Shown in pieces: positions 3,458-3,853 of a stretch of DNA of 53,202 bases. This DNA is from a virus. Below the pieces are notes generated by a model. That model was not told the origin of the DNA and searched no databases. It saw only the letters and a list, made by a program, of their open reading frames with translations. The stretch lies in IMG/VR virus record IMGVR_UViG_3300045988_160612, positions 1 through 53,202 of that record. The stretch is one strand, 5' to 3'. The first letter of the stretch is position 1. Each line of letters starts with the position of its first letter. The position numbers were made by a program, and so were the translations under genes.

Positions 3458-3853
3458 TCAATAGATTCCTTTACCTAATTTTCCAAGTTTTATGTACTCG
3501 GCTACATAAGAAATAAAAGTAGAATTTGTAGGGCGATTTCCCCCTTCTCTAAAAATACCAACACCAAATAATGTGCCCCAATATTTTCTGATTTCATAAA
3601 CATTGTAGGCTTTTTCTACTGCATTCCTCATATTACGTTCTACTTGGGTATATTCGATATTAAACTTTTCGGCTATATCTTCATACATTTTTACAACCTG
3701 CTCTGTAGTTGTATCATCAATTATCTGCTGCTGTATTGCCATAGCCAAAAGTTTAAAGCCTGCATATCTGGGAGATATACCCAAATCCAAAAGCGCTTTT
3801 CTTACTCTCATTTCCAGCTCAGAAAATTCTATTGCTACTGTTTTTTCTTCCAT
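3458..3853 (-). CDS. Stand-alone Spo0A C-terminal (DNA-binding) domain protein, paralog 1.
   Basis: LLDLGISPRYAGFKLLAMAI, MYEDIAEKFNIEYTQVERNMRNAVEKAY and LFG...NRPTNSTFISYVAEYI match Spo0A [47 protein letters not shown] and LFG...KPTNSEFIAMVADKL. No receiver domain is present. Confidence 0.75.
   Translation of the reverse strand: MEEKTVAIEFSELEMRVRKALLDLGISPRYAGFKLLAMAIQQQIIDDTTTEQVVKMYEDIAEKFNIEYTQVERNMRNAVEKAYNVYEIRKYWGTLFGVGIFREGGNRPTNSTFISYVAEYIKLGKLGKGIY

Follow-up and report, generated by a model that had tools for sequence, protein, structure and literature searches.

Mining of human-gut viromes by Schwartz et al. 2023 (mBio 14:e00182-23; PMC10294663) has revealed phage homologs of the sporulation gene spo0A that are truncated to the effector domain, and the same paper put forward the hypothesis that these truncated Spo0A proteins may act without host signals or the phosphorelay. 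The isolated DNA-binding domain of Spo0A binds its legitimate targets without phosphorylation (PMC3485338; PMC10294663). Furthermore, phage-encoded sporulation sigma factors resembling sigF and sigG lower the spore yield when they are expressed in Bacillus subtilis (cited in PMC10294663). Here, we describe the virus record IMGVR_UViG_3300045988_160612 of IMG/VR, a stretch of 53,202 nucleotides (nt) that was analysed at its full length and is called the window below. It encodes two stand-alone proteins with the effector domain of Spo0A (Spo0A_C), which we refer to as copy 1 and copy 2:

3458..3853, minus strand: Spo0A_C copy 1, a stand-alone effector-domain protein of 131 amino acids (aa), assigned by Pfam family PF08769 and by sequence and fold matches in the PDB.
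3863..3868, minus strand: ribosome-binding site AAGGAG, 9 nt upstream of the ATG of copy 1, read from the sequence.
37563..37961, minus strand: Spo0A_C copy 2, a stand-alone effector-domain protein of 132 aa, assigned by PF08769 and by its fold.

The class of protein and the hypothesis on its action have already been published, and this genome is an unusually divergent further example. Like the phage spo0A homologs of Schwartz et al. 2023, the two genes encode the effector domain only, lack a receiver domain and reside in the genome of a gut phage. This genome differs in carrying two paralogs, each of which has closer relatives than the other, and PMC10294663 makes no mention of two copies in one phage. 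With the C-domain of Bacillus Spo0A (1FC3, 1LQ1) both proteins share the six-helix fold with its helix-turn-helix, and they have kept the V-E-R-x-x-R, LFG and (P)TN-x-F motifs. In contrast, their identity to this domain, and to the N-terminally deleted, constitutively active form of Spo0A, is only 29-32%. They also differ from Spo0A in being phage-encoded, away from the chromosomal spo0A locus, and in the change of many positions that are invariant in Spo0A. The sigF/sigG-like factors offer a looser parallel, in that a phage carries its own version of a transcription regulator of sporulation and could thereby reprogramme the dormancy of its host; they belong to another protein family, however, and an effect on sporulation has been measured for the sigma factors only. 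Phage phi29, which carries 0A boxes that are bound by host Spo0A, likewise connects DNA recognition of the Spo0A type with the development of phages in spore-formers. There the phage contributes the sites and the host the protein, whereas here the protein comes from the phage, whose genome shows no surplus of 0A boxes.

A preliminary description had recognised copy 1 as a Spo0A effector domain without a receiver domain, and this assignment was confirmed. The description gave no strand; the gene lies on the minus strand, starts with an ATG at 3853-3851 and begins 5 nt after the stop codon (3859-3861) of the preceding open reading frame (ORF). In the profile search, copy 1 matched the entire Spo0A_C model of Pfam (PF08769, positions 1-104 of 104) with 73.1 bits (E = 2.1e-20), against a cut-off of 25 bits. 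NCBIfam model TIGR02875, which has an equivalog cut-off of 200 bits, gave a score of only 49.7 bits, and only its C-terminal part was matched (positions 144-258 of 262). The top sequence matches in the PDB were the Spo0A C-domains 1lq1 (E = 3e-9) and 1fc3 (E = 1e-8). An AlphaFold2 model built from a 40-sequence alignment had a predicted local distance difference test score (pLDDT) of 82 and a predicted template modelling score (pTM) of 0.78. When this model was compared with the PDB, only the chains of 1fc3 and 1lq1 matched, with target-normalised template modelling (TM) scores of 0.81-0.87, and the next entry had an E-value of 0.57. The sequence motifs on which the preliminary description had relied, QVERNMRNAVEKAY and PTNSTFI, are present, and the recognition-helix residues are E72, R73 and R76 in the numbering of copy 1. 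No receiver domain was found within the 131 aa, and the 86-aa ORF upstream had no match to the receiver domain (REC).

The second, more divergent copy that had been proposed at 37563-37961 was found as well. Its match to PF08769 exceeded the same cut-off, with 48 bits (E = 1.4e-12, model positions 2-101), and its match to TIGR02875 again stayed below the equivalog cut-off, with 30.8 bits confined to positions 146-251 of 262. The structural model of copy 2 (pLDDT 82) had the Spo0A C-domains 1fc3 and 1lq1 as its sole matches (TM 0.74-0.78; next E > 0.5). Copy 2 likewise has no receiver domain in its 132 aa, and the separate ORF upstream showed no REC match. The two copies share 30% identity (BLASTP), and in a search with either copy the other came out low among the hits (391st of 396 and 226th of 285), which rules out a recent duplication. 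Judged by these ranks, the two copies are not each other's closest relatives.

Both copies are under purifying selection. The ratio of nonsynonymous to synonymous substitution rates (dN/dS) was 0.09-0.13 for copy 1 against its relatives and 0.19 for copy 2. At least 24 contigs from gut metagenomes encode a protein identical to copy 2, flanked by the same neighbours. Among known phages, tblastn with copy 1 recovered only four unannotated fecal contigs named 'Bacteriophage sp.', at ~30% identity, and tblastn with copy 2 recovered essentially nothing.

Conservation was studied in an alignment of 128 distinct domains, comprising 65 full-length genomic Spo0A proteins, 16 genomic stand-alones, 38 viral stand-alones and others, with residues numbered according to B. 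subtilis Spo0A. The residues V212, E213, R214 and R217 were present in 100% of the 38 viral stand-alones and in 98% of the 65 full-length proteins. They were 98-100% conserved in every group of the alignment, and both copies retain V-E-R-x-x-R, while overall identity among the viral stand-alone homologs is only ~30%. Three of these residues, E213, R214 and R217, reportedly contact bases.

The remainder of the domain is far less conserved in the two phage proteins. We defined a near-invariant set of 41 positions that were conserved in ≥90% of the 65 full-length Spo0A proteins. Full-length Spo0A kept on average 39.6 of these 41 positions, the genomic stand-alones 37.2 and the other viral stand-alones 28.7 (range 18-41). 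In contrast, copy 1 kept 19 and copy 2 kept 16, so that both copies stand at the divergent end of the viral set. Positions changed in both copies are K171, R177, T194, A215, I216, H218, W224, R226 and D258, and G227 is changed in copy 1 but kept in copy 2. The substitutions include R226V, G227Y and D258E in copy 1, and R226S and D258I in copy 2. Of these residues, R226 and G227 lie within the sigma-A-activating region of Spo0A (described in PMC4690370). By their profile and fold matches, both proteins are members of the Spo0A_C domain family rather than Spo0A orthologs.

An exhaustive search with copy 1 through 1.84 billion cluster representatives yielded 1628 with E ≤ 1e-3. Only the cluster of copy 1 itself reached E < 1e-30; the remaining relatives were at most ~41% identical, and no relatives of intermediate identity (~41% to 85%) were found among these representatives. 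A scan of IMG/VR identified 58 viral loci with such genes, which mostly encode stand-alone proteins of 91-200 aa. The top non-self matches of copy 1 in the exhaustive search were metagenomic proteins without a receiver domain in which 2 to 8 Spo0A_C domains are arranged in tandem (P0121 and P0122 with 4 domains each, P0123 with 3, P0138 with 8 in 959 aa, and P0004 with 2). To our knowledge, this multi-domain tandem architecture of Spo0A_C has not been described.

The phage genome showed no excess of 0A boxes. The canonical box TGTCGAA occurred once, inside the polymerase gene, versus 2.5 expected, and TGNCGAA occurred 9 times versus 12 expected. Of 99 boxes with one mismatch, 6 were intergenic, which is no enrichment given that 8% of the genome is non-coding. 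Owing to this lack of an excess, we rejected a phi29-like arrangement as well as self-regulation via canonical boxes.

Elsewhere in the family, canonical boxes were enriched upstream of the domain. Within 400 nt upstream, their density at viral loci was 0.31 per kb versus 0.09 per kb in the remainder of the locus (3-fold), and at genomic loci 1.09 versus 0.09 per kb (12-fold). Individual examples have TGTCGAA at ~100-140 nt before the domain start (viral loci L007, L024, L031 and L056; genomic loci L082, L085 and L107) or at ~300 nt before it (genomic loci L065 and L124). The upstream boxes suggest autoregulation, or control by host Spo0A, in those other elements. Hence, the enrichment ties the stand-alone family as a whole to the 0A box.

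The two genes are located in two accessory islands. These islands, and the neighbours of the two genes, are:

1511..4416, minus strand: accessory island 1, between RecA (4400-5341) and a Cas4-like exonuclease (678-1508), from the comparison with the cultured phages AB434P2 and CS266P1.
2786-3442, minus strand: gene of phrog_6721, downstream of copy 1 (phrog_6721 match, E = 7e-70).
36101..38670, minus strand: accessory island 2, between the minor head protein (38764-41100) and a scaffold protein (35451-36095).
37982-38455, minus strand: gene for a pyrimidine-dimer DNA glycosylase of the T4 endonuclease V type (Pyr_excise, 67 bits), directly upstream of copy 2.

Island 1 contains two small Cys-rich ORFs, copy 1, the phrog_6721 protein, a DUF3310 protein and two small ORFs. 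Island 2 contains a 68-aa ORF, the Pyr_excise glycosylase, copy 2, a 46-aa ORF, four tRNAs and a 148-aa Zn-finger-like ORF. In AB434P2 the exonuclease gene directly follows RecA, and in CS266P1 the two genes are separated by a single small ORF. In both phages, an hmmsearch at E ≤ 10 found no gene for Spo0A_C. We regard both regions as accessory islands because the nearest cultured relatives lack Spo0A_C and have RecA and the exonuclease (nearly) adjacent to each other. When the ORFs of island 2 were used as queries against CS266P1, in this one direction, no match was obtained (blastp, E ≤ 1e-5).

The gene downstream of copy 1 had been called ThyX-like in the preliminary description. This name found no support, as the product of 2786-3442 matched neither Pfam Thy1 nor any ThyX sequence in the PDB. 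The recognisable thymidylate synthase of the phage is ThyA, at 9744-10421. The phrog_6721 gene also accompanies copy 1 in the related contig L001.

Further upstream of copy 1 lies a promoter candidate:

5981..6009, minus strand: the best sigma-A-type promoter match upstream of copy 1, TTTACA-17-TATAAT, with 11 of 12 positions matching (a consensus match only).

This match, together with a ribosome-binding site, is carried by an exact direct repeat of 112 nt at 5931-6042 and 17694-17805. The repeat looks like a duplicated promoter-leader cassette, because it precedes two different small ORFs.

The phage genome in the window is complete, with 53,083 bp, and is either circular in the assembly or terminally redundant, since bases 1-119 are identical to bases 53084-53202 (an exact terminal direct repeat of 119 nt). 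All substantial ORFs are on the minus strand, and the GC content is ~33%. The phage is siphovirus-like and from the human gut. Its packaging and structural genes encode a small and a large terminase, a portal, a Mu-F-like minor head protein, a major capsid protein and a tape measure of 1325 aa, and lysis is represented by a GH25 endolysin. Genes for replication and recombination encode a DnaE-type polymerase, a primase, RecA, a RuvC-like resolvase and the Cas4-like exonuclease; those for nucleotide metabolism encode ThyA, a dCMP deaminase and RNase H. The genome has four tRNA genes. No integrase was found among the ~65 ORFs scanned, a subset of all ORFs, and the phage is therefore probably virulent. 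The Mu-F-like minor head protein (38764-41100, minus strand) measures 778 aa versus 322 aa for its homolog in CS266P1, and its ~450 extra C-terminal residues may form a cargo or effector domain.

A megablast search of INPHARED gave no near-identical phage. Both Spo0A_C genes are also present on an IMG/VR contig of 53,454 bp, where the encoded proteins show 94% identity. Among cultured phages, the closest are Agathobaculum phage AB434P2 (DnaE 63% identical) and Clostridium phages CS266P1-4 (DnaE 51%, large terminase 55%, capsid 57%), whose hosts are Agathobaculum butyriciproducens and Clostridium_AP. Those homologs of the endolysin that bear names come from metagenome-assembled genomes of Oscillospiraceae and Ruminococcus. 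Together, the nearest cultured phages and the endolysin homologs indicate that the host is probably a gut Clostridia bacterium, perhaps a member of the Oscillospirales. One genome scan, made with the Spo0A_C alignment only, revealed no close bacterial or prophage relative. The 80 bacterial genome loci that it returned were 28-35% identical to copy 1 and were mostly genuine full-length Spo0A. Full-length spo0A was found in many genomes of gut Oscillospirales and Clostridia.

How might two such proteins act? The reading that we prefer, with a probability of about 0.5, is that both copies are signal-independent binders of 0A-like sites of the host, which would interfere with decisions controlled by Spo0A. 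For both copies we infer the DNA binding, the host target and the direction of the effect. Because a receiver domain is absent, the proteins would not be switched by the host phosphorelay. During infection, the conserved recognition helix (V-E-R-x-x-R) would occupy sites resembling 0A boxes in the host chromosome. This occupancy could then interfere with entry into sporulation, and possibly with stationary-phase genes or with the initiation of replication at oriC. Competitive occupancy or blocking is favoured over a faithful activation of the sporulation programme, because the surface that activates RNA polymerase is not conserved; blocking is the direction towards which we lean, and it is the weakest step of the proposal. 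The divergence of both copies (19 and 16 of 41 positions kept) and the changes at R226, G227 and D258 also weaken the simple picture of a 'constitutive Spo0A'.

The host-directed reading is based on the invariance of the recognition residues, the tie of the family to the 0A box, and the accessory location of both genes. Purifying selection on both copies, the phosphorylation-independent binding of the isolated Spo0A domain, and the presence of full-length spo0A in many genomes of the probable host group also speak for it. As V-E-R-x-x-R is invariant across unrelated phages with ~30% overall identity, the proteins more likely recognise a common site in the hosts, the 0A box, than operators that co-evolve with each phage. 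The invariance of V212, E213, R214 and R217, combined with the lack of a 0A-box excess on the phage, argues for a target in the host rather than in the phage. Location in accessory islands is as expected for auxiliary host-directed genes.

Several points weigh against this interpretation. Few members of the family diverge as far as these two copies, which retain 19 and 16 of the 41 positions. Only 6 of the 11 positions of helix D are kept, with changes that include A215N/V, I216M/V and H218N. Moreover, both copies have substitutions at K171, R177 and T194, where every cellular Spo0A has a basic or polar residue, and copy 2 alone is also changed at K195. Because of this divergence, including the changes in helix D, the DNA specificity of both copies may differ from TGTCGAA. 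One phage retains two paralogs that are not mutual closest relatives, for which the host-directed interpretation has no explanation. Both genes lie within operons for replication and structure, and not in an obvious block of early genes for host takeover. The host, which is placed by inference as a probable gut Clostridia bacterium, may not be a spore-former. In the literature we found no experimental work on phage Spo0A_C proteins. Finally, the phage has what looks like an operator specific to its own lineage, which must be bound by some phage protein.

This putative operator consists of pairs of the motif CCAGGAT. The regions that contain it, and two other genes that matter for its interpretation, are:

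17085-17175, 37312-37400, 44539-44634 and 52034-52125: four intergenic regions with CCAGGAT.
20725-20958, minus strand: Sigma70_r4/GerE-like protein of 77 aa, downstream of the lysis genes (Sigma70_r4 26.4 bits, cut-off 24.1; GerE weak).
16328-16933: protein with a Rho_N domain.

CCAGGAT occurs 11 times on the phage genome, versus 4.2 expected, and 10 of these 11 occurrences fall within the four intergenic regions (at 17090 and 17167; 37317, 37384 and 37394; 44545, 44555 and 44622; 52039 and 52118). The motifs form inverted arms 67-79 bp apart, with CCAGGAT(T/A)NA as the unit. In two of the eight arms, one in the 37-kb and one in the 44-kb region, two exact copies of CCAGGAT lie 10 bp apart, and in the other arms the second unit is degenerate. 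Spo0A-C binds tandem 0A boxes head-to-tail, with a periodicity of ~10 bp. The arms are followed by conserved blocks rich in TTTACAA and then by the best sigma-A-type promoter matches of the genome. The operons headed by the four regions serve nucleotide metabolism, packaging, tRNA plus head and tail, and replication. A degenerate search pattern for the operator matched 65 stretches in IMG/VR, of which only the 94%-identical relative had paired sites; the rest look like chance.

These observations are consistent with a tentative alternative, to which we assign a clearly smaller probability than to host interference. According to this alternative, one or both proteins regulate transcription of the phage itself by binding to the CCAGGAT(T/A)NA arms, where they would activate or repress the adjacent sigma-A-type promoters and thereby set a temporal programme. 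In its favour, nearly all CCAGGAT motifs (10 of 11) are concentrated as inverted arms at the heads of large operons, each region is followed by a strong promoter match, and one region lies directly downstream of copy 2. In addition, the motif pairs are conserved in the 94%-identical relative, which has both genes. Conversely, the two cultured relatives without Spo0A_C also lack the pairs, as CS266P1 has no CCAGGAT and the 6 motifs of AB434P2 are all unpaired. This co-occurrence, however, amounts to one lineage versus two. CCAGGAT does not resemble the 0A box, although the putative base-contacting residues of the two proteins are unchanged, and invariant recognition residues across unrelated phages would not be expected of regulators that co-evolve with private operators. 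Moreover, both genes belong to the accessory regions and not to the conserved core, and the phage has other candidate binders of the arms, in the form of the Sigma70_r4/GerE-like protein, the Rho_N protein and many unannotated ORFs. The 77-aa Sigma70_r4/GerE-like protein is a second small helix-turn-helix candidate regulator of this phage.

A stronger form of this idea is that the phage has adopted the Spo0A effector fold as a switch for its own development, with one or both paralogs operating at the CCAGGAT arms of the four major operons, and that the divergent paralogs may act at different times. We consider this unlikely. If true, a domain so far known only from the master regulator of sporulation would also be a family of phage transcription factors with a new DNA specificity.

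It is improbable that the two proteins work as protein-level decoys that titrate a host partner, such as the receiver domain of Spo0A, sigma-A or sigma-H of RNA polymerase, or a regulator directed at Spo0A. Relative to cellular Spo0A, strong remodelling is seen on the surfaces beyond the recognition helix, which would fit decoys, and two different paralogs could mean two different partners. Yet the DNA-reading helix is the most conserved part of the domain, a decoy for sigma would depend on the sigma-A-activating surface, whose residues R226 and G227 are not conserved, and the data name no partner.

That the genes are decaying or non-functional passengers, acquired from the host or from another mobile element, would fit their strong divergence from Spo0A and their presence in variable islands, but is hardly credible given their intact reading frames, the good ribosome-binding site of copy 1, dN/dS values of 0.09-0.19, the retention of both copies at 94% identity in the related 53.5-kb phage, the recurrence of copy 2 as an identical protein on 24 or more metagenome contigs, and the confident folding of the models.

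Truncated phage Spo0A proteins that act on their hosts are an idea already known, and the value of this genome is that of a well-characterised example rather than a discovery. It offers a test case in a complete and recurrent gut phage with two very different versions of the domain, for which the cultured relatives without the genes can serve as natural controls, and the CCAGGAT operators make regulation of the phage itself a directly testable alternative. Spore formation allows a bacterium to escape from phage, and it also traps phage. If the host-directed reading is true, a protein that holds Spo0A sites regardless of host signals would let the virus overrule the dormancy decision of its host, with consequences for the persistence and transmission of gut Clostridia.

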